Of a DNA stretch of 32,000 nucleotides, positions 5,611 to 27,500 are shown piece by piece (position 1 is the stretch's first letter; every line of letters starts with the position of its first letter). A model generated the notes under the pieces. The model searched no databases, was not told where the DNA came from, and saw only the letters and a program-made list of their open reading frames with translations. Source of the DNA: Erysipelothrix inopinata. GTDB taxonomy: Bacteria; Bacillota_I; Bacilli_A; Erysipelotrichales; Erysipelotrichaceae. The stretch lies in the NCBI RefSeq assembly GCF_014396165.1, contig NZ_CP060715.1, forward strand, positions 1,050,001 to 1,082,000, in the 5' to 3' direction. Made by a program: the position numbers and the translations under genes.

Positions 5611-5695
5611 TATTTGCATTCCTTAGTAACCAGTGTTATATTTAATAAAGCGATGGTGTTCGCTAGAACCATTATCTAAAGTGATAATTAATGAC

Positions 5696-5727
5696 GCCTA
5701 CCAAAAATTTTTTTGGTAGGTTTTTTT
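5696..5727 (+). terminator. Rho-independent terminator
   Basis: Hairpin gcctaccaaaaa / tttttggtagg followed by ttttttt. Confidence 0.85.
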
Positions 5728-5747: not shown

Positions 5748-6929
5748 ATGTTATTAAGTTTAGCGTTAATATTTATGGTTGGGTATCTACTTGCTGCTGT
5801 ATTTAAGAAGTTGAGATTACCTGAACTTATTGGTTATTTACTTTCGGGGATGATTCTAGGTCCCTATGGTATGAATGTATTGGATGCCTCATTATTAGAT
5901 ATTGGTGGTGATATAAAGCAAATTGCATTGTTGATTATTTTAACTCAAGCAGGTTTATCATTGGAACTTGATGACTTTAAAAAAATGGGGTCTAAAGCTG
6001 TATTTATGAGTTTTGTGCCCGCTTGTTTTGAGATTACTGCAACATTCTTTCTATCAAAGTGGTTGTTTAACTTTAATACAATTGATGCATTACTTTTAGG
6101 TACAATTATTGCTTCAGCGTCACCTGCAGTGATTGTTCCAAAAATGTTGAAGTTAATGAAAGAGGGGTATGGTGTCAAGAAAGGTGTTCCACAACTAGTA
6201 CTTACAGGAGCATCCGTAGATGATGTGTTTAATATTGTATTATTTACGTCTGTATTAGGATTCCAAGCGAACTCAGGTGTTTCTGCCATGGATTTTGTAA
6301 TGATTCCAGTAACGATTCTCTTGGGCATCGGCTTGGGAATCGTGATGGGATTTGCTGTCAGTTATGTGTTTAAAAGAATTAATACTTCAATCCAAATAAA
6401 AACTATTTTAGTTTTGAGTATTGGTTTTGTTCTCTTGACAGTGGAGCCTTTAGTTGCAAACTATTTACCATTCTCAGCACTAATTGCAGTTATGGCTATG
6501 GGAGTTACTCTCTTAAAAACCTATCCTGAAGATGCGAAAGCAATCTCCCATCAGCTGTCAAGACTTTGGGTTGGAGCGCAAGTTCTTCTCTTTGCACTTG
6601 TTGGTGCGGCAGTTAACCTTGGTTACGCAAGCAAAGCAGGATATCTGGCTATCATCATGCTAGTATTAGCACTTGTTGTGAGAAGTATTGGAGTCATGGT
6701 ATGTGTTAGTCGAAGTGACTTCACACGAAAAGAAAAAATATTTGCTGCAATAGCGGGTACTCCAAAAGCAACCGTTCAAGCTGCAATAGGGGGAATACCA
6801 CTTGCAATGGGACTCCCAAATGGGGAAATGATTCTAGCAATTTCTGTAATCGCCATCCTGTTCACAGCACCAGTAGGGGCAATACTAATTGATCTTACTT
6901 ATAAGAAGTTTCTAACTCATGATATTTAA
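5748..6929 (+). CDS. Cation:proton antiporter (Na+/H+ exchanger family, CPA type)
   Basis: 393 aa with about 11-12 TM helices. The N-terminus LPELIGYLLSGMILGP and the general pattern are typical of the Na_H_Exchanger family. The SD is AAAGGAGAG. Confidence 0.8.
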   Translation: MLLSLALIFMVGYLLAAVFKKLRLPELIGYLLSGMILGPYGMNVLDASLLDIGGDIKQIALLIILTQAGLSLELDDFKKMGSKAVFMSFVPACFEITATFFLSKWLFNFNTIDALLLGTIIASASPAVIVPKMLKLMKEGYGVKKGVPQLVLTGASVDDVFNIVLFTSVLGFQANSGVSAMDFVMIPVTILLGIGLGIVMGFAVSYVFKRINTSIQIKTILVLSIGFVLLTVEPLVANYLPFSALIAVMAMGVTLLKTYPEDAKAISHQLSRLWVGAQVLLFALVGAAVNLGYASKAGYLAIIMLVLALVVRSIGVMVCVSRSDFTRKEKIFAAIAGTPKATVQAAIGGIPLAMGLPNGEMILAISVIAILFTAPVGAILIDLTYKKFLTHDI

Positions 6930-9662: not shown

Positions 9663-11195
9663 ATGGCAAATAAAATCATTGTGTTAGATTTTGGTTCTCA
9701 GTATAATCAACTTATCGTAAGACGCATACGCGACTTAGGGATTTACAGTGAACTCTTAGATAATGAAATTACAGCTGAAGAAATTCGTGCAGATAAAGAT
9801 ATTGCAGGGATTGTACTTTCAGGAGGTCCAAACTCTGTTTATGAAGAGAACGCTTATCATATTGACCAGGAAATATTTAATCTTGGACTCCCTATTTTGG
9901 GAGTGTGTTATGGAATGCAGCTTATGGCACATCAAAATGGTGGACGAGTTGAATCTCATTCAAAGAAGGAATACGGTTTAGCACCTATTAATATTCTCAA
10001 AGAGAATCCATTAACCCATAACCTACCTCAAACATTCAATGTATGGATGAGCCATGGTGATCAAGTAAAAGCAGTACCTGAAGGATTTGAAGTCTATGCT
10101 TCATCAGATAATACCGATATCGTAATGATGGGAAATGTGGAGAAACATCAATATGGCATTCAATTCCATGGAGAAGTAAGAAACACAGAACACGGTATTG
10201 ATATCATCGAAAACTTTGTTTCAGATATCTGTCATGCTGAACGGACTTGGTCAATGGAAAACTATGTTGAACAACAAACAGAACTAATTCGTGAACAAGT
10301 CGGAACAGATCAAGTTATTTGTGCTTTATCTGGTGGTGTAGACTCCGCAGTCGTAGCCGCACTACTTCACCACGCAATTGGTGACCAACTCGTATGTATC
10401 TTTGTAGATCACGGACTCCTTCGTAAAAATGAAGCAGACCAAGTTGTGGAAGTATTTAGAGATCACTTCAAAATTAACTTAATTAAAGTGGATGCTCAAA
10501 AACGATTCCTTGATAAACTCGCTGGTGTTGATGATCCTGAGCAAAAACGTAAAATCATTGGTACAGAATTCATCGCTGTATTTGATGACGAGACTAAGAA
10601 ACTAAAAGATGCGAAATGGTTAGCACAAGGAACTATCTATGCTGATGTCATCGAATCCGGTACTAAAACTGCACAAACGATTAAGTCACACCATAATGTC
10701 GGTGGCTTACCTGAAGATATGCAATTTAAACTAATCGAACCGCTACGTTCACTTTTCAAAGATGAAGTTCGTAAACTTGGACTCGTACTCGGTTTACCAG
10801 AACATATTGTTCATAGACAACCATTCCCAGGTCCTGGACTTGCAATCCGTATCATTGGTGATATTACCGAAGATAAAATTAAAAAAGTTCAAGACAGTGA
10901 TTGGATCTTCCGTGAAGAGATTGCGAATGCAAGTCTTGAAAGTGAGATTTGGCAATACTTTACGGTGCTAACAAATATGAGATCGGTTGGCGTTATGGGA
11001 GATCAAAGAACCTACGATTATACCTTAGCACTTCGTGCGGTTACCTCGATTGATGGGATGAGTGCTGATTGGGCACGTATTCCTTATGATGTAATTCAAA
11101 AGGTGTCAGTACGAATTGTGAATGAGATTGAGGGAATTAATCGTGTAGTGTATGATGTGACCTCAAAACCACCCGCAACAATTGAGTGGGAGTAA
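9663..11195 (+). CDS. guaA: GMP synthase (glutamine-hydrolysing)
   Basis: The GATase1 domain shows LGVCYGMQL and the H/E pair region (IQFHGEV). The ATP-PPase P-loop is SGGVDSAV, and the C-terminal dimerisation domain ends ...KPPATIEWE. The SD is AAAGGAGG. Confidence 0.97.
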
Positions 11196-11201
11196 GAGAA
11201 T

Positions 11202-11244
11202 AAGAGCAGTAAGTCCTTTATTAATAAGGGTTTACGCTCTTTTA
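11202..11244 (+). terminator. guaA rho-independent terminator (long imperfect hairpin)
   Basis: aagagc-a-gtaa-gt-cctt ... aagg-gt-ttac-gctctt followed by ttt. Confidence 0.6.
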
Positions 11245-11424
11245 CTAATGCAGGATATTTATTCTTTCTACCCATATGACAAGCTCCTCATTTTTGCACT
11301 ATTGTCTTATAACAATTGTACGAATACAAGATGCTTAGCTTTTTATTGTGTCCCATTACCTGGGGTCAGTACCTGAGTTATCGCTTTTTGTATTCCCCCA
11401 CTATTTTACACAATCATTACACTT

Positions 11425-12627
11425 TGGTTGACACAAAAGATAAGAAGTTCGTGGTAAACTAAAGGAAAACGAGCAAATACAAACTCACGAAGAAAACGAA
11501 GAGAGTATACAGAGGACTTTAAAAGATAAATGGTTCAGTTGTAAAAAAATGGTAAGGCATCATAAGAAATTCTTGAAGAGTATGACTTAACTGCTTCTAC
11601 TTTCCATAAATGGGTTAAGCAAGATGAACTATCCGGATCATTTAAAGAACGTGATAATTTAACTCCCGAACAAAAAGAAATAATTGAATCGAAAAAGCGA
11701 TTGAAACATGCAGAAATGAAAAATGATATTTTAAAGCAAGTAGCTCTGATTATTGGATGAAAATAATTGTAATCAAATATCAAATCTTATGCGCACAAAT
11801 ATCCAATAAGATCTATGTGTAAAATACTCGATATTAGCATATCAGGTTTCTATAAATATAAAATTAGCAAACCGAAAATCGATACTGAAACACAACGTGT
11901 AGTAAGAATCTTTAATGATAATCAAAAAACCTATGGATCACGTTGTATCCGAAAAGAATGCAGACGTGAAGGAGTCGTGGTATCAAGAAGACGTATCGCA
12001 CGTATCATGCAGGTTGAGGAGTTAATCTCAACGTGTGTACTTGCCCATTATAAAGTTCATAAATAAACAGTTAACGAAGATACTGTAGCAAATGAAGTTA
12101 ATAGACAATTCGATGGAAGAGATAGCTATGAGGTTCTCGTCAGTGATCTAACTTATGTAAGAGTAGATGGAAGTTGGAATTGTATTTGTATGATTCTTGA
12201 TTTACACAATCGGGAAATTGATGGTTACAGCTCGGTTCTAGTAAAAATGTATTTTTAGTCATGGAGGCATTTTCAAGAATCAAAAAAAAATTATCAAAGG
12301 TACAATACTTCCCTGCAGATAGAGGTAATGAATTTAAAAAATAAATTAATAAATGAAACACTAAAACATTTAAAATAAAACGGTCCATGAGCAATAAGTG
12401 TACACTATATGATAATGCCGTAGCAGAAGAGATATTTAAAGCTATAAAAACGGAATTTGTATAGCAAAATTCATTCAAATCACTTGATTAGTTGGAAAAG
12501 AAACTATCGGCTTATATTTGGTGGTTTAATAATAGAAGATTACACTCAGCGCCTGGATATTTCCTCCAGTTGAGCACAAAGATAATAACTCCTTATAAAA
12601 AATGTCCACTAAAGTGTTGACATTCCA
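11425..12627 (+). mobile_element. Decayed IS3-family insertion sequence (orfA/orfB pseudogenes with many stops and frameshifts)
   Basis: The + strand translation gives an IS3 OrfA-like product: KRREYTEDFKR*MVQL*KNGKAS*EILEEYDLTASTFHKWVKQ...EMKNDILKQVALIIG. It then gives an OrfB-like product: YPIRSMCKILDISISGFYKY...QKTYGSRCIRKE...VSDLTYVRVDGSWNCICMILDLHNREIDGYS ... ADRGNEF ... YDNAVAEEIFKAIKTEF ... WFNNRRLHSAPGY.SPVEH. There are at least 6 in-frame stops or frame changes. The end points are approximate (TGG... at 11425, ...TTCCA at 12627). Confidence 0.8.
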
Positions 12628-12968
12628 TAGTATAAATTCTGGTCGGTGTTTTATTTAACTAATACTGTGTCTAATAAATGGCAGTTAATATAGTGATTTA
12701 AGATATAATGATAGTAACAGGTAGAAAAATATCAAATATATCTGTTAGAATAAAGCTACAATGATGAATTTCAATAAAAAAAGTTTATCTTAAAATGAAC
12801 AAGTGGATAGAGTGCCACTCGATTAAGACATTTACATCTATAAGTAGAACAAACAAAATGGTACTCAACAGCAATTTTCTTCATTTCAGTAATATGTAAA
12901 TAACACTAGTATTGCTACTTAATTTTACTCATTAGGAGAAGTAATAATTTCAAACAAGGAGAACAAAA

Positions 12969-15461
12969 ATGTACCGAAAAATATCAGAGAAATTATATGA
13001 AAAATTTGTAGTTAACCATATGGCTTGTGCAATTCAGGGAAAAGATGGAAAATATTATACTAAGTATATTAATGTAAGTAGTAAAATCATCGAATCTATG
13101 CTTAAATCAAAAAGCTCGATGGGAATATATCAGCAACTAAATGGAAATGTAAAATGGGTTTGTATTGATTTTGACTGTAAAGACAAAGAATATCCTAATG
13201 TTGAGTTGATGTACGAAGAGATAGTAGATGACTTCATATTTAAATTAGATAGTTTAAATATTTCATATTTGAAGGAATACTCAGGAAGACGAGGAATTCA
13301 TATATGGATAATATTTGATGAGTTTATATCTAAAAGAGATGCCTATAGAATAGTTTCGTATCTTATTTTAGATATTAAATACGATAAAGAAAAATATGGG
13401 ATTGATTTATTTCCTGCAACACCGACATCTGCCGGTAATAAGGTAGGCAAGCAAGTAAAGCTACCATTATCAACACATAAAATGGGAAACCAATCGTTTT
13501 TTTTTGAAAATGAGCTTGATTTAAAAAAAGAAATAAATATAGATGAACAAAGTGAAATTTTAGAGAAATATACGTTTCAAACTCCTTCACAACTGATTGC
13601 ATTACTTAATGAAGATTCGACAAATTCTCAATCGGTATTTAAGAAGCATGCGATTAAATCTGAAAAAGATACTAATATATCGGTTTTCTTTAGAGAAGTT
13701 TACTCTATTTTATCTGAATTAGAACCATATGAGAGACTCTTTACTAAAATTAAAAATGGTCAATTAGAAAATGTAGATTATTTAGTGCTTTATGGAACCA
13801 GTACAGGATTTTCTAGTGATGATTCTTTTTTTGAATATTTGATGGAGGATAATCCACTGTATAATGAAGAAATTTCCCGCAGAAAAACGAATAAAATAAA
13901 ACAGGGATATGGGATACTCACGCTGGGGAGCTTATTTGATAGATATTGTTGTAAACTTAGCGAGAATCTTAATCCTCTAGATACTGCTGTAGATTTCTTT
14001 ATGAGAAAAACTAATGATAAATACTTGATGTATATAACTGATATTAAAACCGAAACGGAAATTGATATATTAAGTAATATATCATATACAGCCAGCAAAG
14101 AAAAAAATTATTTTTTTGAAAATGACGAAGTTATTAATCCAAACATATATATTGATTTTATGAAAAATCAAGTTAGAACCAATGAATTTATAGTTTCTGA
14201 CATTGAAGAGATATGTTTTGGGAAAAATAAACATTCAGAAAATATCGAATTTTATAGGTATATTAGAAAAGAAAAGGATAAGGATAGACAACTCGTTTCG
14301 TTAGGCTATAAGGATCGAATTTTAACAACACAGTTAGCTCTGAATATTTCCTATGCACTTAATCGATTTCAAAACATTAAGTCATTTAGTTACAATATCA
14401 ATTTTTCATCTAAAAGATACATATTCTTTAATTGGTTCAATTCATGGAAAGAATATACAAAACGTATAAATACATACTTAGAAATCCCCTTTTTTGATGA
14501 TTATGCTTTGATTCAGTTAGACTTGAAGAAATTCTACGAGAACATTGATTTTATTACTCTGTCTGAAAAATTGAATAAGCTAACTGTTGATGATAGTGTT
14601 TATTATCAGTTAAAATATCTTGTTAATTATAATGAAAAACTCATGTATGAGTTGACAAAATCAAGAAAAGGGGTGCCGCAAGGTCCAGCTTATGCAAGAA
14701 TAATTTCTGAGCTATTTATTCAATTGATTCTAGATGAAGCTTTAAAAAACCATTCAAGTTCAACTGTTTTAAGATATGTCGATGACATGTGCATAATTTG
14801 TCCTAAGGATGATGTCGATGATATGTATAATGAATTAAAAATATTACTCTTAAAGAATGGATTACCATTAAATAATAATAAAACAAGAATTTATTATGAA
14901 TTAAGTGATTTAACAGAAGAAGAAAAAAGAACAATTAATTTTGGTAATAAAATGTCTTATGAGTTTAATACATCTAACGAAAATATGTTGCAAACTAATG
15001 AAGAAAAGAGTGACTTAATTTCAGACAAGTTGAGTAACTACAATATTGATGATTGCAGCTTATTGTTTTCAACATCTACGGATGATTACTATAAAAAAAT
15101 GTACTTTATAAGAAATGCAAAAAGTATATTTTCAGAGGAATTAGGAAGAGGAAGTACATTCATGAAGATATATGCATTTCTATTTTCTAGTGATGAACTT
15201 GTGGAACTCTGTGTAAAGAATAAACTTTTTAAAAATTTAAAAAGTGAATCATTAAATTTTAGTGTTTTTATTAATCATTTATTCATGTTCATTGATCAAG
15301 ACCTTATTTCTGATAAATCCTTATTATTAATTTGTGAATCATACTTGATGAAACTAGATATTGACGAAGTTATCGTGCAAAACATTGATGATTTACAAAC
15401 ATTAAATGCTATCAAAAAACATGTAGAAATGACTGCTAAAGAGGATGTGAACTATAAGTAA
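12969..15461 (+). CDS. Fusion protein: N-terminal archaeo-eukaryotic primase-polymerase (AEP/PrimPol) domain plus reverse transcriptase (UG/Abi-like, YVDD) plus alpha-helical C-terminal region
   Basis: The SD AAGGAGA ends 6 nt before the ATG.
- AEP motifs: WVCIDFD (DxD, aa 63-69), SGRRGIHIWIIF (sGxGxH, aa 105-116), GIDLFP, and KQVKLPLSTHKMG (aa 161-173).
- RT motifs: KDRQLVSLGYKDRILTTQLAL (motifs 1/2, aa 438-458), LIQLDLKKFYENID (motif A, aa 514-527), SRKGVPQGPAYARIISELF (motif B, aa 565-583), RYVDDMCIICP (motif C, YVDD at nt 14775-14786), and LPLNNNKTRIY (motifs D/E).
- Residues ~650-830 are helix-rich, resembling the alpha-repeat tail of UG/Abi RTs. Confidence 0.85.
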   Translation: MYRKISEKLYEKFVVNHMACAIQGKDGKYYTKYINVSSKIIESMLKSKSSMGIYQQLNGNVKWVCIDFDCKDKEYPNVELMYEEIVDDFIFKLDSLNISYLKEYSGRRGIHIWIIFDEFISKRDAYRIVSYLILDIKYDKEKYGIDLFPATPTSAGNKVGKQVKLPLSTHKMGNQSFFFENELDLKKEINIDEQSEILEKYTFQTPSQLIALLNEDSTNSQSVFKKHAIKSEKDTNISVFFREVYSILSELEPYERLFTKIKNGQLENVDYLVLYGTSTGFSSDDSFFEYLMEDNPLYNEEISRRKTNKIKQGYGILTLGSLFDRYCCKLSENLNPLDTAVDFFMRKTNDKYLMYITDIKTETEIDILSNISYTASKEKNYFFENDEVINPNIYIDFMKNQVRTNEFIVSDIEEICFGKNKHSENIEFYRYIRKEKDKDRQLVSLGYKDRILTTQLALNISYALNRFQNIKSFSYNINFSSKRYIFFNWFNSWKEYTKRINTYLEIPFFDDYALIQLDLKKFYENIDFITLSEKLNKLTVDDSVYYQLKYLVNYNEKLMYELTKSRKGVPQGPAYARIISELFIQLILDEALKNHSSSTVLRYVDDMCIICPKDDVDDMYNELKILLLKNGLPLNNNKTRIYYELSDLTEEEKRTINFGNKMSYEFNTSNENMLQTNEEKSDLISDKLSNYNIDDCSLLFSTSTDDYYKKMYFIRNAKSIFSEELGRGSTFMKIYAFLFSSDELVELCVKNKLFKNLKSESLNFSVFINHLFMFIDQDLISDKSLLLICESYLMKLDIDEVIVQNIDDLQTLNAIKKHVEMTAKEDVNYK

Positions 15462-15489
15462 AATAAACGAGTTATATAAAGCTGTCTAC

Positions 15490-18054
15490 TTGAGTGAGGA
15501 ACCCCAAAATATAATCATATTATTACAGGAGTTTAACGGTTATTATTCTGAGGATTTGATTGAAGATCCAATATTAACAATAAAAACTTTCATACTAATG
15601 ATTCGTAAAATTACGAATCATTCAATTAATGAAGAATACCAGAGTGATCTTGATAAGGAGATTATTAATGCTTATTCAAATATCGAAAATATACCGATAA
15701 ATGATCCAATTAATATCGAGACCAAACTTTTTTCTTTCATTAAAAAAGTTAATAATCTTGATGGGAATATAAACGCGTTAGAACAACTATCTACAGATAT
15801 ATCAAAGTTTTCATTAGAGCTGGATGGTATTAATAGAATTTTCACTGTGAGAAATAATGAAAATAAATTAGTTTTTCCTTTGGGAAATATAATGAAGTAT
15901 GTTTTGGAATCTGACTTAGAAAAATTCACTAGAATGGGTGAAAAAGAAATTGGAATTATTTTGCTTTCTCTAAGCATTTTTCGAGACACAGAGAAATATA
16001 AAGAGAATGTTGCAGAACTTAATAAATTATTAAAATCCTGTAATATTGTGCTCTTTGACTACATTTCGGAAGCTGATCGTGATGAAAATTTTGTGAAAAA
16101 TTTAGTTGATAATGGATTAATTGTAATTTCGGCAAAATCAAAAAATAAGATTTATATCAGAACAACAAAAAGTAAGGACTATTTTGATGGCGGTGATCAT
16201 TATGTTCAATCAGAAACTAATATCAAGGGTGAGGAAATTGCTTGGTTTGTTATAAAAGAAATTAATAATTATGAATTTAAATCAGGGAATGATATTATAA
16301 AAGAAAGAAATCCAAAACAAATACTTAGATTACTTGATTTTGTAATAGGTGATTTACATTATAATGTATTTGCAAAAGATGCTTTTTACTTCTGCAATCA
16401 GGAGTTGTTTATTACTAATGATTTTACATTTAGAGATGAGGTTATTATTTTTGATAAAAAATCTCATCGAATGAATTCATCAGATGTTGTGTATAAATTA
16501 ATAGAAAACTATAGACTACAATTTTTTTACGATAATCTTTCATCATTTAATAATGTTACTTTAGGATTTATCGCCGAATTGATTTTGAAATGTGGAATTT
16601 GCACAGATGATTTATTGGATTTAACTAACGAAAATGATACGGTCGGGCTTCAAGAACGTATCCTCACTAACTACATAGACAGTGGAGAAATTTCGCTGAT
16701 AAATCTTGTAGATTTTCTGACTATATGGTTAGCAGATTTAGAGTATACTGCAGAAAAAAATAACTTTAAAAGTAAACATGTTAAAGATTTAAAAGGATTT
16801 TATCCAATACAGTTTTCTGATAATTTCTATTCCGTAGTTACTTTTGCTTATATTGAAAATTTTGATTTTTTAAGTTTGCAAAGGCAAAGAGATGTTTTCT
16901 CGATAGAAAAATCTGATACACCAATCAATTACAATGATAATCGATTAGGCTTCTTAGATAGAGATGGGAATATTTATAATGATAATGGTGAAAGTAAAGA
17001 TATTACATATAGCTACTACCTAGAGATTGGAGATGAAAAAATCGTTAATGAGGATATAGATCAACTTGGAAAATTATTCAGAAAAATAAGTATTGAAAGT
17101 GCTTGCTATGTTCCGTTAGGCATTTTTCTAAGTTTGAATAAAGTCGGTATTGATCAGATTCTAAAAATTATGGATTTACAAAAATCTGGACTGTGTTTCG
17201 ATTTTGACACTACGATTTGCGAGTCAATATATTTCTTCAGGCTTGTTAATCACTTAGTATATTACGAAATTTATGATCAAGAATCTGTAGAAGCATTTGT
17301 AAAGTTAATAAGCGTTTGTCATGATATTATCGATTTTAATGTAATACTGTCAAAACATATTAAGAATTTAGATAAAAATTGCTTATTACTAACAAAAGAC
17401 CATTTAGGAAATGACTCAACAGCTCAAATGGCTATTAAAGATTACTGTACTAAGCCAAATCAAAGAAACAATTTAATAGGATTTTCTCAAACAATTTCAC
17501 TAAAAAAAGAGAATAATAGTTATAACTTCAATAGTAAGGATTCAAAAATAAACAGAATAGAGATTGTGTTTGATTTGACTCAATCAGGAAAAAGCACTCT
17601 TGAGACATTAAACCACTATATGGTTGATGAAATTAGCGATGGATTCAGGCCTAGAATTATTTGTGAAGATAACTATGTTTTGGTTACTGATATTTGCTGT
17701 TTAAATGAGTGTCCTTTAATTATTGAAGTATTTGCTGGGAGTGTAGATTCAAAAGAAAAAATAGAAACTTTTATGAATGGTTTTTCAATCTCTAATTGGG
17801 AAGTGAATTATTTAACAATGATAAGTAAAATTGTAGATGATAACTTTGTGAATTTGTGGAAGACTGCATATCCTAAAGTAACATCAATGTACGGTGATAT
17901 CGGACATGATAATAGAAATGGACTACTTAAAATTGGCAATTTTCCAGTAATTAGAGAGTATAACCAGCCTAAGATGAATATCTATGCTAATGATGAAATG
18001 AATTCAAATCAAATATTCAACATATTAATTAAGAAGAAAGAATTACAATACTAG
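15490..18054 (+). CDS. Large (854 aa) uncharacterised protein, probable partner or effector of the PrimPol-RT
   Basis: This long uninterrupted ORF is in the same orientation, 28 nt after the RT stop, with the same extreme AT bias. The start is uncertain: TTG at 15490 is the first canonical start, neither it nor the first ATG at 15598 has an SD, and the frame is open from 15451. I recognise no family. There is only one weak motif hint: IEIVFDLTQSGKSTLE (aa 690-705) resembles a PRTase PRPP-binding loop. Confidence 0.7.
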   Translation: MSEEPQNIIILLQEFNGYYSEDLIEDPILTIKTFILMIRKITNHSINEEYQSDLDKEIINAYSNIENIPINDPINIETKLFSFIKKVNNLDGNINALEQLSTDISKFSLELDGINRIFTVRNNENKLVFPLGNIMKYVLESDLEKFTRMGEKEIGIILLSLSIFRDTEKYKENVAELNKLLKSCNIVLFDYISEADRDENFVKNLVDNGLIVISAKSKNKIYIRTTKSKDYFDGGDHYVQSETNIKGEEIAWFVIKEINNYEFKSGNDIIKERNPKQILRLLDFVIGDLHYNVFAKDAFYFCNQELFITNDFTFRDEVIIFDKKSHRMNSSDVVYKLIENYRLQFFYDNLSSFNNVTLGFIAELILKCGICTDDLLDLTNENDTVGLQERILTNYIDSGEISLINLVDFLTIWLADLEYTAEKNNFKSKHVKDLKGFYPIQFSDNFYSVVTFAYIENFDFLSLQRQRDVFSIEKSDTPINYNDNRLGFLDRDGNIYNDNGESKDITYSYYLEIGDEKIVNEDIDQLGKLFRKISIESACYVPLGIFLSLNKVGIDQILKIMDLQKSGLCFDFDTTICESIYFFRLVNHLVYYEIYDQESVEAFVKLISVCHDIIDFNVILSKHIKNLDKNCLLLTKDHLGNDSTAQMAIKDYCTKPNQRNNLIGFSQTISLKKENNSYNFNSKDSKINRIEIVFDLTQSGKSTLETLNHYMVDEISDGFRPRIICEDNYVLVTDICCLNECPLIIEVFAGSVDSKEKIETFMNGFSISNWEVNYLTMISKIVDDNFVNLWKTAYPKVTSMYGDIGHDNRNGLLKIGNFPVIREYNQPKMNIYANDEMNSNQIFNILIKKKELQY

Positions 18055-18290: not shown

Positions 18291-18529
18291 TACATTGAAC
18301 TGTCCAACTTTGAAATTCTAAATAATGATACGATATAGAAAAGGATAAACTAAATAAGACAAGAAGGAAAGTAGGGAAATCTACTCTAAATAATTATAAG
18401 TATCATCTTCGATTTAAGTACAAATAATTAGAACTATGAGCCTACCCACTTACGATTGATTGTTCAACCATGATTCGCTTAGATGACAGTCAATGTGCGT
18501 CCCATCCATTCTCGGAAAGAGTGTGACGT

Positions 18530-18850
18530 ATGAGAGTCATACGTAATATTTGTTGTGGAATGGATGCATGCAAGAATATCATCGTTGCAGCGATTGTGAA
18601 CGTTAATCACGGTGGTATTTCAACGTTAATTCGAAGAAGCTTCTCAATATATAATAATGAGTCGATAGACCTTTGCGTGCGGAGCTTATTGAAAATCAAT
18701 GTACACAAGTCTGTATGGAATCGAACGGTGAACATTGGATTAAAAATTTCAATATCTTTGAGTCTGATATTGAAGTTTTTCTAACTTCGCCCAAATATGT
18801 TTAATGCAATAAAAGTGAAAAAAACTGACATAAAACATTGATAAGCTCCC
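18530..18850 (+). pseudogene. N-terminal remnant of an IS110-family transposase
   Basis: CGMDACKNIIVAAIV...RRSFSIYNNESIDLCVRSLLKINVHKSVWNRTVNIGLKISISL followed by SPKYV*CNKSEKN*HK. Compare the IS110 pattern GIDV.K..I.VAI...R.F.T....L..L..WL....C..V.MESTG.YW.P..N.LE......L..P..VKAIKG.KTDK.D. It is degenerate and truncated. Confidence 0.55.
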
Positions 18851-18911
18851 CTTAAAGAAGACACCCGAAATGAATTAAAACAGGCACTTCAAAAAGTGAG
18901 TAGTTTTTTCA

Positions 18912-19047
18912 ATGGTTGGAAGCAATAAATATCCAGAAGAAGTAAAAGAACAGGTTGTTAAAGAATACTTGAACGGAATAAAAAGAATAAAAGAAATAGC
19001 TGAAGAAATGAGAAAGAGGATTGATTTGATCCATTTACTGATATAAT
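18912..19047 (+). pseudogene. Fragment of an IS3-like transposase OrfA (HTH part only)
   Basis: MVGSNKYPEEVKEQVVKEYLNGIKRIKEIAEEMRKRIDLIHLLI* fits the pattern M..R.KYS.EFK..VV..YL.G.S...IA.EY.I. It is truncated after about 45 codons. Confidence 0.45.
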
Positions 19048-19255: not shown

Positions 19256-20680
19256 ATGAATACTTTAACAAATAGTCAACAAATTGCATTTAATGAAATG
19301 ATGGAGAAGAATAATGTGTTTATTACTGGTGAAGCGGGAACCGGTAAATCTTTCTTAATTAACAAGTTTGTTGAAGAGTGTGAAGCAATAAATAGAAAAG
19401 TATTGTTGGTTGCTCCAACAGGAATTGCAGCACTTAATATTGGCGGTTCAACAATTCACTCACAATTTAATGTACCACATCACCCACTGGTCGGAAGTGA
19501 GAAAATGAAAATAAACAATTCATTAAAAAAAGCAGATGTAGTAGTTATTGACGAAATTTCAATGTGTAGAATTGATTTGTTTGAGTTTGTAATTAAAATG
19601 ATTTTTGAAGCTGAGGCACAATCAGGAATTAGGAAACAAATCATTACTGTTGGAGACTTTTTTCAATTATCTCCAATTACAACGAGAGAAAATAAAGGAA
19701 TACTTAAGGATCACTATCCAAATTTTGTTAACGGATACGCATTTGAATCAGATATTTGGACCACGCTCAACTTCCAAACAGTTTATCTTAAAGAAATAAT
19801 GCGCCAAGATGATTCGGAATTTATAAACAAGCTGAACTCTGCGAGAATAGGAAATAAAGAGTGTATTCCCTATTTCAATAATCTCGTAGGTAAGCCAGAC
19901 AATGAAGGAATATTTTTGTTTGGAACAAATAATGATGTAAACAAGGTTAACCAAAAAAAATTAGATGAATTACCTGGTAAATCAAAAATTTATAAAGCTG
20001 AAATAGAAGGTGATATAACTGAAGCAAACGTACTAGCAGTTAAAGTTTTGGAATTAAAAGTGGGAGCTAGGATTATGATGCTAGTTAATGATATACAGGG
20101 TTTCAAATATAAAAATGGATCTCTTGGAGTGGTGAAAAAGTTAGAAAAGAATCAAATACTAGTAACAATTGACGGCGATGATGACGTAATTTCGATTGAC
20201 GTTCATGAATTTAACAACTCCATATATGAATACGTTGAAAAAGAAAACGAGTACGGAGAGTTAGAGGGGAAAATGGAAACTAATATAATAGGCACATTCA
20301 CTCAATTTCCTCTAAAGTTAGCTTACGCGATTACTGTTCATAAATCACAAGGACAAACTTTCGATAAGATAAATTTATCGCCGGATTTCTTTAATCCTGG
20401 ACAAATGTACGTTGCTCTGAGTCGTGTTAAAAGTGTAGACGGATTAACATTGATCAAATCAATTAGCCCATCAAATATGAAGCATGATCCAAGGGTTAGT
20501 GATTTTTATAATCTAGAAGTAGAAATGAGCAAAAGAGAAAAAGAAGTTGTTTCAAGTTTAGGATTAAGATTATTAAACCTAGACGAAAAAGATATATTAT
20601 CTAATCCTCAGATTGTTATAGAACAAATCAAAAAGGCTAAGAGAAAGCTGAATTTTGAAAAAGATGCCATCGTGGAATAA
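19256..20680 (+). CDS. Pif1/RecD-like SF1B DNA helicase
   Basis: Motifs read: Walker A ITGEAGTGKSFLI, LLVAPTGIAA, Walker B VVVIDEISM, VGDFFQLSPI, YAITVHKSQGQTFD (motif V/VI region), and YVALSRVKS. Confidence 0.85.
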   Translation: MNTLTNSQQIAFNEMMEKNNVFITGEAGTGKSFLINKFVEECEAINRKVLLVAPTGIAALNIGGSTIHSQFNVPHHPLVGSEKMKINNSLKKADVVVIDEISMCRIDLFEFVIKMIFEAEAQSGIRKQIITVGDFFQLSPITTRENKGILKDHYPNFVNGYAFESDIWTTLNFQTVYLKEIMRQDDSEFINKLNSARIGNKECIPYFNNLVGKPDNEGIFLFGTNNDVNKVNQKKLDELPGKSKIYKAEIEGDITEANVLAVKVLELKVGARIMMLVNDIQGFKYKNGSLGVVKKLEKNQILVTIDGDDDVISIDVHEFNNSIYEYVEKENEYGELEGKMETNIIGTFTQFPLKLAYAITVHKSQGQTFDKINLSPDFFNPGQMYVALSRVKSVDGLTLIKSISPSNMKHDPRVSDFYNLEVEMSKREKEVVSSLGLRLLNLDEKDILSNPQIVIEQIKKAKRKLNFEKDAIVE

Positions 20681-20753: not shown

Positions 20754-21266
20754 ATGACAAATGAATTGCAACCACTATCATTGTTATTTCAAAATAGATT
20801 ATTTCGTATACCGGATTACCAACGAGGGTATGCATGGCAGCAATCTCAATTAATTGATTTCTGGGATGACGTTACTAATCTTCAGAAAGAACGATACCAC
20901 TACATTGGATTATTATCTCTAAAGGAACTTGAAAAAAAGGAAATAGAGACATGGGGCAGCGACATATGGATGGTTGAAGTAGGCTTTACAGCATGCCATG
21001 TAGTGGATGGTCAACAACGTCTCACTACATTTATAATATTACTAAATGAACTCATAGAAATAGCAAAATTAAATAACCCCGATAAGTCCGAAGAAGATAT
21101 CGTCCTAGGATTTGAGACCTTAAAAGATATTAAAAAAAAGTATATTTGTCGTCACCGACCACCAAATAATCAGATAACCACCTATCTTTTTGGTTATGAG
21201 GTAGATAATCCTAGTTCGGATTATTTGAAATATAGAATATTTGGTGAACCATATTCTGGGGCGTAA
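20754..21266 (+). CDS. GmrSD-like type IV restriction enzyme, N-terminal fragment (first part of the DUF262 domain), cut off by a frameshift
   Basis: FRIPDYQRGYAWQQSQLIDFWDD and VVDGQQRLTTF are the DUF262 (ParB/Srx-like NTPase) signature motifs. The ORF stops at 21264-21266, while the -1 frame continues without a stop into the next ORF. Confidence 0.8.
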   Translation: MTNELQPLSLLFQNRLFRIPDYQRGYAWQQSQLIDFWDDVTNLQKERYHYIGLLSLKELEKKEIETWGSDIWMVEVGFTACHVVDGQQRLTTFIILLNELIEIAKLNNPDKSEEDIVLGFETLKDIKKKYICRHRPPNNQITTYLFGYEVDNPSSDYLKYRIFGEPYSGA

Positions 21267-21292: not shown

Positions 21293-23563
21293 ATGAATGC
21301 AAAAAAATTCTTTAATGAAAACTTAGTTGAGCTTTATAAGAATGAAGGTATTAAAGGATTTAATGAACTTTATTCAAAAGTTACGAAGAAGTTGATGTTT
21401 AACATTCATGTTATTGATGATGAATATGATGTTTTCGTAGCTTTTGAAACAATGAATAACCGAGGGAAAAAACTCACAAATTTAGAACTTTTAAAAAATA
21501 GACTTATATATCTTACCACCCTATATCCAGATGATTTTTTTGATGAACTCGATAAAATCGATTTACGTAAGCAAATTAACAATGCATGGAAAGAAGTGTA
21601 TTATCAGCTAGGAAGAAATGAAAAAAATGCCCTGTCGGATGATGAATTTCTGAGAGCACATTGGATCTGTTATTTTTCCTATTCTCGTAAAAAAGGTGAT
21701 GACTACATTAATTTTCTCTTAAATAAATTTTCTTCAAAAAAAATATTTGAAATGAAAATAGTAGATTCAAATGATTTTGAGGATTCGTTTTCTGGATTTA
21801 CTTATGATGATGAAGAAACAATAATTGAAAATGATGACTTGGAAACACTTGAACTATCAAAACTTACACCTAATGAGATTGATTCTTATGTCAATAGTCT
21901 AAAGGATTTGTCGATGTACTGGTATGATACATACTTTCCTAATGAGAGCACGAATCTTACACCTTATGAAAGAACATGGGTGGATAAATTAAATAGAATC
22001 GGTATTGTGTATTTTAGACCGCTAGTAATGGTAATTATTAGCAAGAGAGACTTAACCGAGGAACAACGAATTCATGCATTTCGAACAATTGAAAGATTCA
22101 TTTTTATCTGCTTCAGAATTGGCTCAAACCAAGCAACATTCAGAAGTAGTGAATTTAATCGATTAACAAAAAAATTATACTGGAATGAAATAGATTTAGA
22201 TGTGGTAATTAATGAAATCGAAGCGACAACTAATGCTAATACGGACTATGCTCTACAAAACTATGTAACGAAAATTGAGAAAAACTTTGACAGTAAACTA
22301 GGTTACTATGGATGGAATACTGTTCGATACTTCTTGTATGAATATGAAATAAGTTTGGCGAAGAAAAATAATATCGAAAAACTGGATTGGAATCTATTTA
22401 CAAGAAGTGAAAGGGACAAGGTTTCCATAGAACATATACTTCCGCAAAAACCATCAAAATACTATTGGAGAAACACTTATAGACAATTTGATTCTGATGA
22501 GATAATATCGCTGTCAGGATCTCTTGGAAACTTGCTCCCACTTTCACAAAGCATAAACTCATCCCTACAAAACGATAGCTTTGAAGATAAAAAAATATCA
22601 AAGCTAGATGGTAGACGAGGTTATGAGAATGGCTCTCATTCTGAAATAGAGGTTTCTAAATATGAGGATTGGACTGCGGAAATTATTTATCAAAGAAGCA
22701 TTAAACTCTTGAATTTCATGGAAAAGCGATGGAAATTTAGCTTTAGTGCTGATCAATTTAAGAGGCTTGTCTACGTTTCATTTGTGCGCGATGGAAGAGA
22801 AATACCTAAAGACCTTCTTAAAGAAAAGGTGCTAGAAGAAAACTCAAAATCGTACACGGATCTAGATAATTTTTCTTCGAATGAATTAGGAAATAAACAG
22901 CTTTCTTTTTGGATTGATTTTATTAATTATTGTAAAAGTATAGGTAGAGATAATCTCGTTAACAGAAAACCGTTTGCACAAAACTGGTATGATATAACAG
23001 TTCCCAATGCACAATTTCATTTATCTTTTACAATTACAAGTAGTAAATACATCACACTTCTGATATATGCATATGATCTAGACATGTTTGTTAAACTAGA
23101 GGAACGAAAAGATGAAATTGAATACCATTTTGGAGATAAACTGAACTGGTATTCATCGAGAACCGGTAGTACCGCTAAAAGAATTCTATACAAACAAGAA
23201 TACGATATTTTTAATCCATCAAAAAAACAAGAAATATTTGATTGGATGATTAAAAAGTATGACTTAATCTATAATGCACTTATTGAGGTGGAATTAATAA
23301 ATGCAGGAGATTCACCTGAAAGTCGATTCTCTTTTCTGAAACAATACCTACAAGAGAAAAACGATGAGATTATTATATTATCGTTCAGTCAAATTGAAGA
23401 AATTATCAATTCTAAACTTTGTGATTCTGCTTATAATTACAACGCATATTGGAAATGTTCTAAGACGCATGTTTTACCTAATTTAATATTTGAGAGCGGC
23501 TACGATATAAGCAATATAAGTTTAATTGATGAGAAAATAGTTTTAAAGAAGCGAATACAATAA
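21293..23563 (+). CDS. GmrSD-like type IV restriction enzyme, main fragment: rest of DUF262, DUF1524 His-Me nuclease, DUF4268-like domain and a small C-terminal domain
   Basis: FETMNNRGKKLTNLELLKNRL is the end of DUF262. VSIEHILPQKP...GNLLPLSQSINSSLQNDSFEDKK is the DUF1524 HNH-like motif. NWYDITVPNAQFHLSFTI...LNWYSSRTGSTAKRI is DUF4268-like. The frame is open upstream to 21248 and reads GVNETYYTKNL before the annotated Met. Confidence 0.8.
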   Translation: MNAKKFFNENLVELYKNEGIKGFNELYSKVTKKLMFNIHVIDDEYDVFVAFETMNNRGKKLTNLELLKNRLIYLTTLYPDDFFDELDKIDLRKQINNAWKEVYYQLGRNEKNALSDDEFLRAHWICYFSYSRKKGDDYINFLLNKFSSKKIFEMKIVDSNDFEDSFSGFTYDDEETIIENDDLETLELSKLTPNEIDSYVNSLKDLSMYWYDTYFPNESTNLTPYERTWVDKLNRIGIVYFRPLVMVIISKRDLTEEQRIHAFRTIERFIFICFRIGSNQATFRSSEFNRLTKKLYWNEIDLDVVINEIEATTNANTDYALQNYVTKIEKNFDSKLGYYGWNTVRYFLYEYEISLAKKNNIEKLDWNLFTRSERDKVSIEHILPQKPSKYYWRNTYRQFDSDEIISLSGSLGNLLPLSQSINSSLQNDSFEDKKISKLDGRRGYENGSHSEIEVSKYEDWTAEIIYQRSIKLLNFMEKRWKFSFSADQFKRLVYVSFVRDGREIPKDLLKEKVLEENSKSYTDLDNFSSNELGNKQLSFWIDFINYCKSIGRDNLVNRKPFAQNWYDITVPNAQFHLSFTITSSKYITLLIYAYDLDMFVKLEERKDEIEYHFGDKLNWYSSRTGSTAKRILYKQEYDIFNPSKKQEIFDWMIKKYDLIYNALIEVELINAGDSPESRFSFLKQYLQEKNDEIIILSFSQIEEIINSKLCDSAYNYNAYWKCSKTHVLPNLIFESGYDISNISLIDEKIVLKKRIQ

Positions 23564-24520: not shown

Positions 24521-27500
24521 TTAATTCTCTTTATATTTCTTTTTGCCAAGAACAATTAGAACGAATCCGATTAGTACATAAAAGTAATTCATGTAATTTA
24601 TACCAATACCTGTGTTAGGTAAATTAGGTTCAGGAGTTGTTGGAGTTGGATCTTCAGGTTTTTCTGGAGTAACTTTCACAACTTCTTCTTTTTCATATAC
24701 ATAGGTAACTACTTGTTCAGAACCAGTAAATGTACCAGATGCGTTTTTAGGTACTTCAGTAAGTTTGTAGTTTTCAACATTCTTAGCAGTTGCTAAATAT
24801 GGTGTTGTAATCTTTCCTGTAAGTACTTCTGATGGTGATACAGTGTTACCGTCTGTATCAACGTAGTTCACAATAACGTTCGCACCATCAACAAGATCAT
24901 ACACATATGTAACGGTTTGAGCTTCAGTTGTAAATGTTCCTGATGCATTTGTAGGTTGTTCTGTTAATGTGTAGTTTTTAATATCTTTTTGAACACTTGT
25001 ATATGGTGTTGTAGCTTTACCATTTAATGTTTCGGTGTCTGCAATTTCATTTCCATCGATGTCAACATATTTTACAGTGACTGCAGCACCGTCTACAAGA
25101 TCGTATACATAGGTTACTGTTTGCTCAGTATCTGTAAATGTACCAGTTGCATTATTAGGTTTTGTAGTTAATGCATAATTCTTAATAACTTTTTCTACTG
25201 ACGTATATGGTTTTGTAATCTTACCATTTAGGGTTTCAGTATCCGCAATCTCATTACCTTCAGTGTCAACATAGTTGACAGTAACTTTTGCACCATCAAT
25301 AAGGTCATAAACATAAGTAACTGTTTGAACTTTGTTTGTGAATACGCCTGTTGCATTGTCAGGTTGAGCTGTTAGTGCATAATTTGTAATTGTCTTTTCT
25401 GATGCTGTATAAGCAGTTGTGATTTTACCAGATAAGGTTTCTGTATCCGCAATCTCGTTACCATCGATATCAACGTATTTTACTGTTACATTTGCACCTG
25501 CAATTAAGTCATAGACATAAGTGACAGTTTGTTCTGTATCAGTAAATGTACCGGATGCGTTGCTTGGTTTTGAAGTTAATGAATAGTTTTCGATTGCCTT
25601 TTCTACTGAGGCGTAAGCAGTCGTAATCTTACCTGATAGTGTTTCAGTATCATCAATTTCATTACCATCGATATCAACATATTTTACCGTAACTTTAGCT
25701 GCATCTACAAGATCATAAACATACGTTACTGTTTGTTTAGTGTCTTTGAATGTACCCGTAGCATTAGCAGGGACTTCAACTAACTTGTAGTTACCAATCG
25801 TTTTTTCTACTGAAGCATAAGGTGTCGTAATCTTACCATTCAATGTTTCTGTATCTGCGATTTCGTTACCTTCTGTATCTACATATAATACGGTAACAGG
25901 TTCTCCTGCGATTAAGTCATAGATGTAAGTTACAGTTTGTTCAGTATCTGTAAATGTACCCGTAGCGTTTCCAGGTTGAGCTGTGAGTGCATAATTCTTA
26001 ATTGATTTTTCTGCTGCAGTATAAGCTGTAGTAATTTTACCGGATAGTGTTTCAGTATCAGCGATTTCATTACCGTCAGTATCAACATATTTAACTGTTA
26101 CATTTGCGCCTGCAATTAAGTCATAGACATAAGTTACGGTTTGTTCTGTATCTGTAAATGTACCTGAAGCATTTTCAGGTTGAGCTGTGAGCGCATAATT
26201 TGTAATTGATTTTTCTGTTGCAGTATAAGCGGTAGTAATTTTACCCGATAGTGTTTCGGTATCGGCAATCTCATTACCTTCCGTATCAACATAATTAACT
26301 GTTACATTTGCACCTGCAATTAAGTCATAGACATAGGTTACAGTTTGTTCAGTATCTGTGAATGTACCTGTAGCGTTGTCTGGTTGAACTGTAAGGGCAT
26401 AATTTGTAATAGTCTTCTCTAAAGCTGTGTATGGTGTAGTGATTTTACCATTCAAGGTTTCAGAATCTGCAATCTCATTGCCATCAGTATCAACATAATT
26501 TACAGTAACTTTAGCTGCGTCTACAAGATCGTAAACATACGTAACAGTTTGAGCTGTGTCTGTAAATTTACCAGTAGCATTAGTAGGCTGTTTTGTAAGC
26601 GTATAGTTCGTAATTGTTTTTTCTGTAGCAGTATAATCAGTTGTAATTTTACCACTCAAAGTTTCGGAATCCGCAATTTCATTGCCGTCAGTATCAACAT
26701 ATTTAACGGTAACATTAGCTCCGGGAATAAGGTCATAGATATAAGTTACGGTTTGTACTTGATCCGTAAATGTACCTGTAGCATTATCTGGTTGAACAGT
26801 TAATTCATAGTTTTCGATTGTTTTATCGGTCGTGAAGTAATGAGCAGTAACATCGCCTGAATAGGTTTCATCCTCTGCAATTTTATTACCATCAATATCA
26901 ACATACTTCGCGATGACATCAGCACCTCTATTTAAGTCATAAACAAATGTGACTGTTTGAGCAGTATCTGTAAACTTACCTTTTGCACTTCCTTGAGTTT
27001 CTACAAGGTGATAGTTGGTGATAGTTTTTGCGACTGCTTCATAATCAGAATTAATTTTACCTTTTAAAGTGTCCTCTCCTGAGATTGGGTCACCTTTTAA
27101 GTTTACATATTTAACAGTAACGTTTTCGCCGTCAGCAGCTTCATAAACGTAGGTAATTTCTTCATGATCGATAGGAAGCTTGCCAGATGCATTGGCAGGT
27201 GTAGTTTTTAAAGTATAGTGTTTATTGGTAACTGGAGAAGATGTATAAGCATCTCCTGCGAAACCAGTGATTGTTGTTGAGTCTGCAATTGGATTACCAT
27301 CAGTATCAACATGATTTACTGTTACACCACCGGAAGTTACCGCTTTTAAACTAATTCCGGTAAATTCTGCGATTGTTTCTAGAGTATCATATGATTCGTT
27401 TTTTAGATTAATCGTAACTTTTGTACCCGAAGGTTTGAAGTAAATCGATTTAGAACTAGTGCGACCTTCGGCAGTTGAACCTTCGCCAGCAGCAGCCGTT

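Follow-up and report, generated by a model that had tools for sequence, protein, structure and literature searches.

The primase-reverse transcriptase (RT) gene of Erysipelothrix inopinata described here lies in a 32,000-nucleotide (nt) stretch of contig NZ_CP060715.1 (assembly GCF_014396165.1, positions 1,050,001 to 1,082,000 of the forward strand), referred to below as the window, in whose own numbering all positions are given. Together with the gene directly downstream it would form a two-gene UG10-small defence cassette (DRT7 family, Class 1 UG/Abi) working as in the characterised members, a reading to which a probability of about 0.82 was assigned. The first gene, at 12969..15461 on the plus strand, starts with ATG, encodes a PrimPol-RT protein of 830 amino acids (aa) and was recognised from the list of open reading frames (ORFs), a PADLOC profile and an AlphaFold2 model; a Shine-Dalgarno sequence, AAGGAG, is located at 12956-12961, 7 nt upstream of its start. 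The second, the UG10-small accessory gene at 15454..18054 on the same strand, encodes 854 aa when read from a TTG at 15490 or 866 aa when read from an ATA at 15454, and was identified by BLASTP, phmmer and a structure model.

Family assignment and domain architecture

The PADLOC profile RT_UG10_small matched aa 1-820 over profile positions 4-823 of 824 with an E-value of 4.6e-291, the runners-up being UG10_large at 5.8e-126 and the best unrelated UG group at 4.5e-20. Judged by these matches, the 830-aa protein is a member of the already described UG10-small/DRT7 anti-phage family and does not represent a novel enzyme type. Mestre et al. (2022, PMC9226505) defined UG10, which they renamed DRT7, as a Class 1 UG/Abi RT whose N-terminus carries an AEP domain of the PriS type; a domain of about 800 aa and unknown function is fused to it in the large form and encoded by a separate downstream coding sequence in the small form, the separate protein being cluster 1038. 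The window locus is the small form, since a homologous accessory ORF, ending at 18054, directly follows the RT gene. The RT protein was 100% identical to partial Erysipelothrix (E. inopinata) records and the next relative was only 41-42% identical; by these comparisons it is a new and divergent Erysipelothrix member of UG10-small, with no other sequence found above 42% identity. The phage records searched held no UG10 relative, and the plasmid records held only distant ones from Bacillus and Peribacillus.

Both catalytic domains were recovered by Pfam well above the curated cutoffs, AEP-TOTE (PF22548) at aa 30-185 with E 8.4e-19 and 68.5 bits against a cutoff of 27, and RVT_1 (PF00078) at aa 512-652 with E 1e-15 and 58.4 bits against 29.6. 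A sequence search of the PDB further matched aa 40-186 to the Prim-Pol domain of the Marinitoga CRISPR-associated Prim-Pol (CAPP; 7nqf) with E 2e-12, and these E-values are far beyond chance. The sequence motifs are DFD at 67-69, GIHIW at 109-113, LDL at 517-519 and YVDD at 603-606, and D67/D69, H111, D518 and Y603-D606 are invariant across 57-58 UG10-small and 11 UG10-large relatives. By these motifs the 830-aa protein is a genuine two-active-site polymerase in which the AEP/PrimPol and RT sites both appear intact. The initial annotation, which is partly supported overall, had proposed exactly this pairing of AEP and RT in one polypeptide with two intact polymerase sites, and the Pfam matches and the CAPP fold match given below bear it out; its catalytic H111, D518 and D605/D606 were placed exactly, and its D66/D68 was off by one, the true pair being D67/D69. 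Conservation of the catalytic residues among homologues, for which a test had been set beforehand, was found throughout.

The AlphaFold2 model of the RT protein, built on 57 sequences, reached a pLDDT (predicted local distance difference test score) of 88.1 and a predicted template modelling score (pTM) of 0.87, and all domains are encoded on the plus strand. The α/β AEP/PrimPol domain occupies 12969..13610 (about aa 1-214), with its catalytic D67/D69 at nt 13167-13175 and H111 at nt 13299-13301; D146 is probably the third metal ligand, judged from AEP motif III. A Foldseek search of the PDB placed this domain with the CAPP Prim-Pol structures 7p9j/7nqf at a target TM-score of 0.81. Among solved structures, the CAPP of Marinitoga sp. 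1137 (PDB 7NQD-7NQF, 7P9J) comes closest to the N-terminal domain; this adaptation enzyme occurs on its own or linked to Cas, whereas the window offers no cas context. A disordered linker at aa 215-231, with pLDDT below 50, separates the PrimPol domain from a confidently modelled helical domain at 13662..14078 (about aa 232-370, borders approximate, model helices at 232-369) that contains the conserved G264, D270, G276, Y314, T318, L322 and Y326, and similarity to CAPP-type PrimPol profiles continues to aa 311-328. By homology to the Streptococcus salivarius (UG10S_Ss) and Escherichia coli (DRT7_Ec) proteins, the middle segment most likely comprises this PriL-CTD-like (PP-CTD) domain plus the RT fingers; nothing was found to support its earlier interpretation as a binder of template RNA or a sensor.

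The thumbless RT-like palm and fingers are located at 14079..14918 (about aa 371-650), as indicated by RVT_1, fold matches and residue mapping. The key residues, mapped to the S. salivarius and E. coli numbering, are R433, R440, D518 (nt 14520-14522), Y523, PQG at 570-572, R577 and YVDD (nt 14775-14786). The helical tail of about 180 aa noted earlier is the αRep domain at 14919..15458 (about aa 651-830), all-helical in the model over aa 650-829, and it carries both R727, in an invariant GRG motif, and the predicted priming tyrosine Y664 (nt 14958-14960) in its first helix pair. The pLDDT is lower at aa 651-680 (61-77), around Y664, which fits the published mobile two-helix priming module. For RT and tail together the best fold matches found by Foldseek in the PDB were AbiA, UG15/DRT4, AbiK and Abi-P2, over about 500 columns.

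Residues of the published mechanism

The closest architectural counterpart is S. salivarius UG10S (WP_104020715.1) with its accessory protein (WP_104020716.1; PMC9226505; 10.64898/2026.02.16.706125), which has the same order of PrimPol, PriL-CTD-like domain (a probable one in the window protein), thumbless RT and αRep and is likewise split, its accessory protein of about 860 aa being encoded by an ORF of its own. The window protein is about 32% identical to it and 23 residues shorter (830 versus 853 aa). UG10S makes poly(dT) covalently attached to Tyr691, and synthesis was abolished in the Y691F, D631N and R456A variants; the primase-dead D72A/D74A variant made poly(dT) like the wild type and no dsDNase-sensitive poly(dA)/poly(dT) product (Figiel et al. 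2026, bioRxiv 10.64898/2026.02.16.706125). In E. coli DRT7 the RT synthesises Tyr682-primed poly(dT) with no nucleic-acid template and the PrimPol domain afterwards uses this product, by extension or copying, to form poly(dA), thymine being selected by R440, R447, R595 and R750 and the deoxyribose contacted by Y531 (Song et al. 2026, bioRxiv 10.64898/2026.04.18.719102). DRT7/PPRT has further been described as having an exonuclease activity for proofreading and as playing a part in oxidative damage (Kim et al. 2025, bioRxiv 10.1101/2025.09.07.674619).

No solved DRT7 structure was among the PDB matches, by sequence or by fold, and the comparison with DRT7 was therefore made through residue mapping. 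The numbering was bridged by a Streptococcus UG10-small protein of 853 aa (L035), in which all 16 residues named for UG10S_Ss stand at identical positions, and for E. coli by a UG10-large protein (L040) with an offset of about +3 from the E. coli numbering. Residue alignment paired S. salivarius (Ss) Y32 with Y29, Ss D72/D74 with D67/D69, Ss R445 and E. coli (Ec) R440 with R433, Ss R456 and Ec R447 with R440, Ss R597 and Ec R595 with R577, and Ss Y629-V630-D631 with residues 603-605 of the YVDD motif. Through L040, Ec D526 corresponds to D518, the steric gate Ec Y531 to Y523, and Ec R750 (L040 R753) to R727 of the GRG motif. The priming tyrosine, Ss Y691 and Ec Y682, falls on Y664, which also aligns with L040 Y685. 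The DRT7/PPRT of E. coli SC366 and LN97, a UG10-large form, thus shares the same core, with D68/D70, R440, R447, D526, Y531, R595, YVDD, Y682 and R750 read through L040.

The mapped mechanistic residues are each kept in 57-58 of the 58 UG10-small sequences, and the Y664 position is a tyrosine in 57 of them. On this alignment, every residue found experimentally to be important in E. coli DRT7 and for catalysis, priming and the thymine pocket in S. salivarius UG10S is kept in the window protein. Differences were seen at the peripheral DNA contacts of the S. salivarius enzyme, where Ss R287 is Y271, F503 is W489 and F731 is L698, and F62 is without a counterpart. Since the homologous tyrosine Y664 and the thymine-pocket arginines are conserved, the published family mechanism would apply here, and very probably the window enzyme self-primes on Y664 and makes template-independent poly(dT), which its PrimPol converts to A/T duplex-like DNA.

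Transferred to this protein, the mechanism would run as follows. The RT-like domain would prime on the hydroxyl of its own Tyr664, situated in the mobile first helices of αRep, and would polymerise dTTP without a nucleic-acid template, the dTTP being picked by R433, R440, R577 and R727 and ribonucleotides being kept out by Y523. The covalent poly(dT) would be passed to the N-terminal PrimPol (D67/D69/H111) and copied or extended with dATP into poly(dA), giving a protein-linked poly(dA)/poly(dT) duplex-like DNA. The downstream protein of 854-866 aa would correspond, as the product of a separate ORF, to the arch/MID-CTD region of E. coli DRT7, and its role would most likely be to gate the primase site until there is a phage cue.

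The claim in the initial annotation that this enzyme differs from the protein priming of AbiK/Abi-P2 did not hold, as the family priming is AbiK-like, on the protein's own tyrosine, and Y664 is conserved here. AbiK, AbiA, Abi-P2 and DRT4/UG15 combine, as UG10 does, an RT palm and fingers with a C-terminal αRep instead of a thumb, and are protein-primed. They differ from UG10 in having no PrimPol, no PriL-CTD-like domain and no such accessory protein, in carrying the priming residue in flexible loops of other subdomains, and in their nucleotide preferences.

One further arginine, R450 (nt 14316-14318), is invariant in 58 of 58 UG10-small sequences and is Gln in 9 of the 11 UG10-large sequences. 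It is a small-form-specific conserved residue near the arginine pocket of the fingers, and no role for it was found in the published accounts of the family.

The accessory gene, its start and its fold

By BLASTP the accessory protein matched the ORFs downstream of two other UG10-small RTs, at 28% identity (E 6e-94) and 22% identity (E 3e-32). In a survey of about 35 UG10-small loci recovered from named genomes, a homologous ORF of approximately 760-1110 aa, typically 850-925, followed the RT in most of the intact loci examined, usually overlapping the RT stop. A word-indexed homologue search of the accessory protein returned only itself, and an exhaustive phmmer search gave 56 relatives among 1.8 billion representatives; the full-length ones were about 845-946 aa and none was about 1700 aa.

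Some loci of this kind depart from the usual pattern. The accessory ORFs of L012, L013 and L016 (Roseburia, Lachnospiraceae) and L021 (Pseudobutyrivibrio) are 1041-1111 aa against about 860, with about 200 residues added. In a metagenomic UG10-small locus (L005:10256-12595) the accessory gene is followed by a second AEP protein of more than 999 aa with AEP-TOTE, DEAD/ResIII and PLDc_2, so that two different AEP-based conflict genes stand side by side.

The start of the accessory gene in E. inopinata is atypical. Its reading frame is open from 15451 and the first canonical start is the TTG at 15490, which has no Shine-Dalgarno sequence comparable to that at 15438-15445. At 15454 the frame reads ATA AGT AAA ATA AAC GAG TTA TAT AAA (I S K I N E L Y K), and each codon of this stretch has its counterpart at the start of the closest homologue (L001:3044), ATG AGT AAA ATT GAC AAG TTA TAT AAA (M S K I D K L Y K). 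The Shine-Dalgarno-like sequence AAAGAGGA, at 15438..15445 on the plus strand, lies 8 nt upstream of the ATA, still within the RT gene at its 3' end. If translation began at 15454, the accessory gene would share the last 8 nt of the RT gene, stop codon included, as it does in the closest homologue. Because of the codon-for-codon alignment with L001, the ancestral accessory ATG is taken to have been replaced by ATA in this locus, a new local point and a difference from the S. salivarius operon. The ATA could mean weak initiation, coupled re-initiation, a shorter TTG-started protein, expression loss or an assembly error. Two draft-genome proteins (P0001 and P0100) end and begin on either side of the junction, so that they give no independent copy against which the ATA base can be cross-checked.

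The accessory protein had no match in Pfam, PADLOC, NCBIfam or the PDB sequences, whether searched as a single sequence, as 39 separate members or as a profile. In its model (pLDDT 82.2, pTM 0.78), which gave no Foldseek match at E <= 1e-3, the N-terminal region is helical, the middle modules are rich in β-structure and the C-terminal domain is α/β. The weak Foldseek matches were mostly uracil or adenine phosphoribosyltransferases, with uracil phosphoribosyltransferases making up 9 of the top 12 PDB entries, at E 0.04-1 and TM-scores of 0.3-0.37. At 17548..17598 on the plus strand (aa 687-703, counted from the TTG at 15490 as are all accessory residues) alignment and model revealed a motif resembling the binding loop for phosphoribosyl pyrophosphate (PRPP), namely a hydrophobic strand followed by D695, four residues, G700, one residue, S702 and T703. 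Conservation in the loop was 39/39 for D695, 38/39 for G700 and 33/39 for T703, and in the model the loop lies between a predicted strand at 689-697 and a helix at 701-711.

In E. coli DRT7 approximately 1000 extra C-terminal residues (the arch, or MID + CTD) are fused to the core, whereas the corresponding protein is separate here and similarity between the two is marginal. BLASTP of the accessory protein against 11 UG10-large proteins gave no match, and hhalign of its profile against their pooled C-terminal regions found no similarity (probability 0.2%). With filters off, profile positions 698-795 aligned with L039 1622-1715 (domain E 1.7e-5 in the 11-sequence database) and with L040 1608-1698, and the pattern D-x3-[ST]-G is kept in the C-terminal domain of these two UG10-large proteins. 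When hhalign was restricted to the C-terminal regions of L039 and L040, a collinear alignment of 781 columns was obtained with E 0.003 and a probability of 10.6%. These alignments faintly suggest that the accessory protein may be the equivalent of the fused arch/CTD region, as the literature has it. It is possible, though on balance doubtful, that the accessory protein ends in a phosphoribosyltransferase-like α/β domain binding nucleotides or PRPP, perhaps shared by module 5/CTD of the fused DRT7. Such a domain was not found in the published descriptions of the UG10/DRT7 family, and it is put forward as a lead and not as a finding.

Genomic setting, alternative readings and significance

The cassette lies immediately after guaA (9663-11195) and the guaA terminator, in a stretch of low G+C content (GC), 26-30% against 34-40% in the flanks. 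On its left side degenerate fragments of orfA/orfB of an IS3-family insertion sequence (IS), recognised by an HTH_21 match and by their frames, are spread over several frames at about 11444-12617; on its right side are an IS110-like N-terminal fragment (18527-18801) and a 5' fragment of IS3 orfA (18900-19043). A pair of 58-nt arms, 11238-11295 and 18892-18949, shows 74% complementarity, and arms and transposase pieces together (11238-12617 and 18527-19043) may be the relic of a composite IS-flanked unit. A stand-alone RecD2/Pif1-like SF1B helicase of 474 aa (19256-20680), with weak PADLOC matches to the candidate defence helicases PDC-S68, type IV RecD and AbiO, is flanked by the UG10 cassette on one side and on the other by a GmrSD/HEC-06-like type IV restriction gene. 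The latter consists of two ORFs (20754-21266 and 21293-23563), the break falling in the DUF262 domain at its N-terminus (profile positions 4-93 and 137-198). GmrSD_C, DUF4268 and DUF7662 are present in the larger ORF as well, and the gene is either naturally split or a pseudogene. The neighbourhood is a typical defence-island setting. A promoter and terminator scan gave no more matches than were found in shuffled sequence.

Two features further out were recorded in passing. A fluoride riboswitch (RF01734, 45.1 bits, E 1.4e-9) at 5640-5707 lies directly upstream of a Na_H_Exchanger-family gene (5748-6929), not of a crcB or eriC-type gene. On the minus strand at 24521-27988 a surface protein of 1155 aa contains 13 MucBP repeats, derived from an 8.8-copy tandem array of 204 nt (repeats at 25016-26814), and marks the right-hand return to normal GC.

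Several points weigh against a UG10-small cassette working as in the characterised members. The mechanism is known from homologues, of which the S. salivarius enzyme is only 32% identical to the window protein, and no other sequence found exceeds 42% identity. Anti-phage activity has been demonstrated only for the fused E. coli form, a UG10-small operon being one that the authors could not test. The published studies also differ, describing either discrete complementary strands primed on poly(dT) or a fold-back extension giving palindromic DNA, and either abortive infection or no cell death. Homology between the accessory protein and the C-terminal region of UG10-large is barely detectable in both hhalign comparisons, and only its last α/β domain aligns at the domain level. 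Finally, the ATA at the ancestral accessory start and the split GmrSD gene could indicate that the cassette is partly decayed.

Carried further, this last point gives the alternative that survives best, although it is still unlikely, a decaying and non-functional cassette in which the RT is intact, the accessory start codon has been lost and the island has been eroded by IS elements. It would account for the ATA where the closest accessory homologue has ATG, with the next start, TTG, lacking a Shine-Dalgarno sequence, for the degenerate IS3 and IS110 fragments on both sides and for the two ORFs of the neighbouring GmrSD-like gene. However, both cassette ORFs, of 830 and 854-866 codons, are uninterrupted in DNA of 26-29% GC where stops arise easily, and the invariant residues are all retained. 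The good Shine-Dalgarno sequence at normal spacing before the ATA would allow low-level initiation there or coupled re-initiation, and the ATA could also stem from an assembly error in one base, the breaks of the draft-assembly proteins falling in exactly this region.

Far less probable is the scheme of the initial annotation, in which the AEP makes an RNA or DNA primer de novo and the RT extends it, copying an RNA template into cDNA. Primases of the AEP superfamily are able to start synthesis de novo and both active sites are intact here, which speak for it, as do CRISPR-associated RT/PrimPol proteins, whose two domains cooperate on nucleic-acid templates according to the cited literature. 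In the characterised relatives, however, the order is the reverse, the RT acting first and the primase afterwards: RT synthesis is independent of the primase site, as UG10S D72A/D74A still makes poly(dT), it is absolutely tyrosine-dependent, and the DNA is covalently bound to the protein. The priming tyrosine and the base-selecting arginines are conserved in the window protein, which has no thumb and groups by fold with the template-independent AbiK, AbiA and DRT4, and no candidate noncoding RNA was found at Rfam gathering thresholds.

The idea of a CAPP-like CRISPR adaptation PrimPol/RT, or of another primase-linked RT class (DRT1/UG1 or UG29), draws on the Marinitoga CAPP as nearest solved PrimPol and on weaker PADLOC and NCBIfam matches to CRISPR PrimPol and RT models, and is hardly credible given 79.9 bits against a cutoff of 200 for CAPP type A1 (NCBIfam NF040561), a PADLOC CAS PrimPol E-value of 2.8e-13 against 4.6e-291 for UG10_small and one of only 0.04 for UG29, no cas gene or CRISPR array in the window, and the DnaG-type, not AEP, primases carried by UG29 and Class 3 systems (Mestre et al. 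2022).

Three other RT groups were considered and rejected. The sole retron-related PADLOC model gave E 0.039 and no retron RNA was found by Rfam. The group II intron RT/maturase model of NCBIfam (TIGR04416) scored 57.4 bits against a cutoff of 300, with no intron RNA at Rfam gathering score in the window, and the NCBIfam Drt3a model stayed far below its cutoff. The initial annotation had likewise set the protein apart from retrons and group II introns, and in this it was right; no Rfam RNA family of any kind reached its gathering score near the gene.

A two-gene UG10-small cassette thus remains the preferred reading, under which an anti-phage role of the E. inopinata locus would be expected. 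The primase-RT fusion looks exotic in raw sequence, yet it belongs to a catalogued defence family whose mechanism was worked out in 2025-26, and the most novel point left concerns the accessory protein and not the fusion flagged earlier. As a divergent split-form member from the Erysipelotrichia, the locus offers a possible alternative experimental subject, the S. salivarius accessory protein having resisted biochemistry. With ATA at the ancestral start, the locus provides a natural variant that could show how much accessory protein the system needs. The PRPP-loop-like motif is a concrete target for mutagenesis in the least understood part of the system, and if the phosphoribosyltransferase-like domain is real, it would serve as a small-molecule sensor or effector through which the nucleotide state of the cell, or a phage cue, is linked to the release of the primase site.

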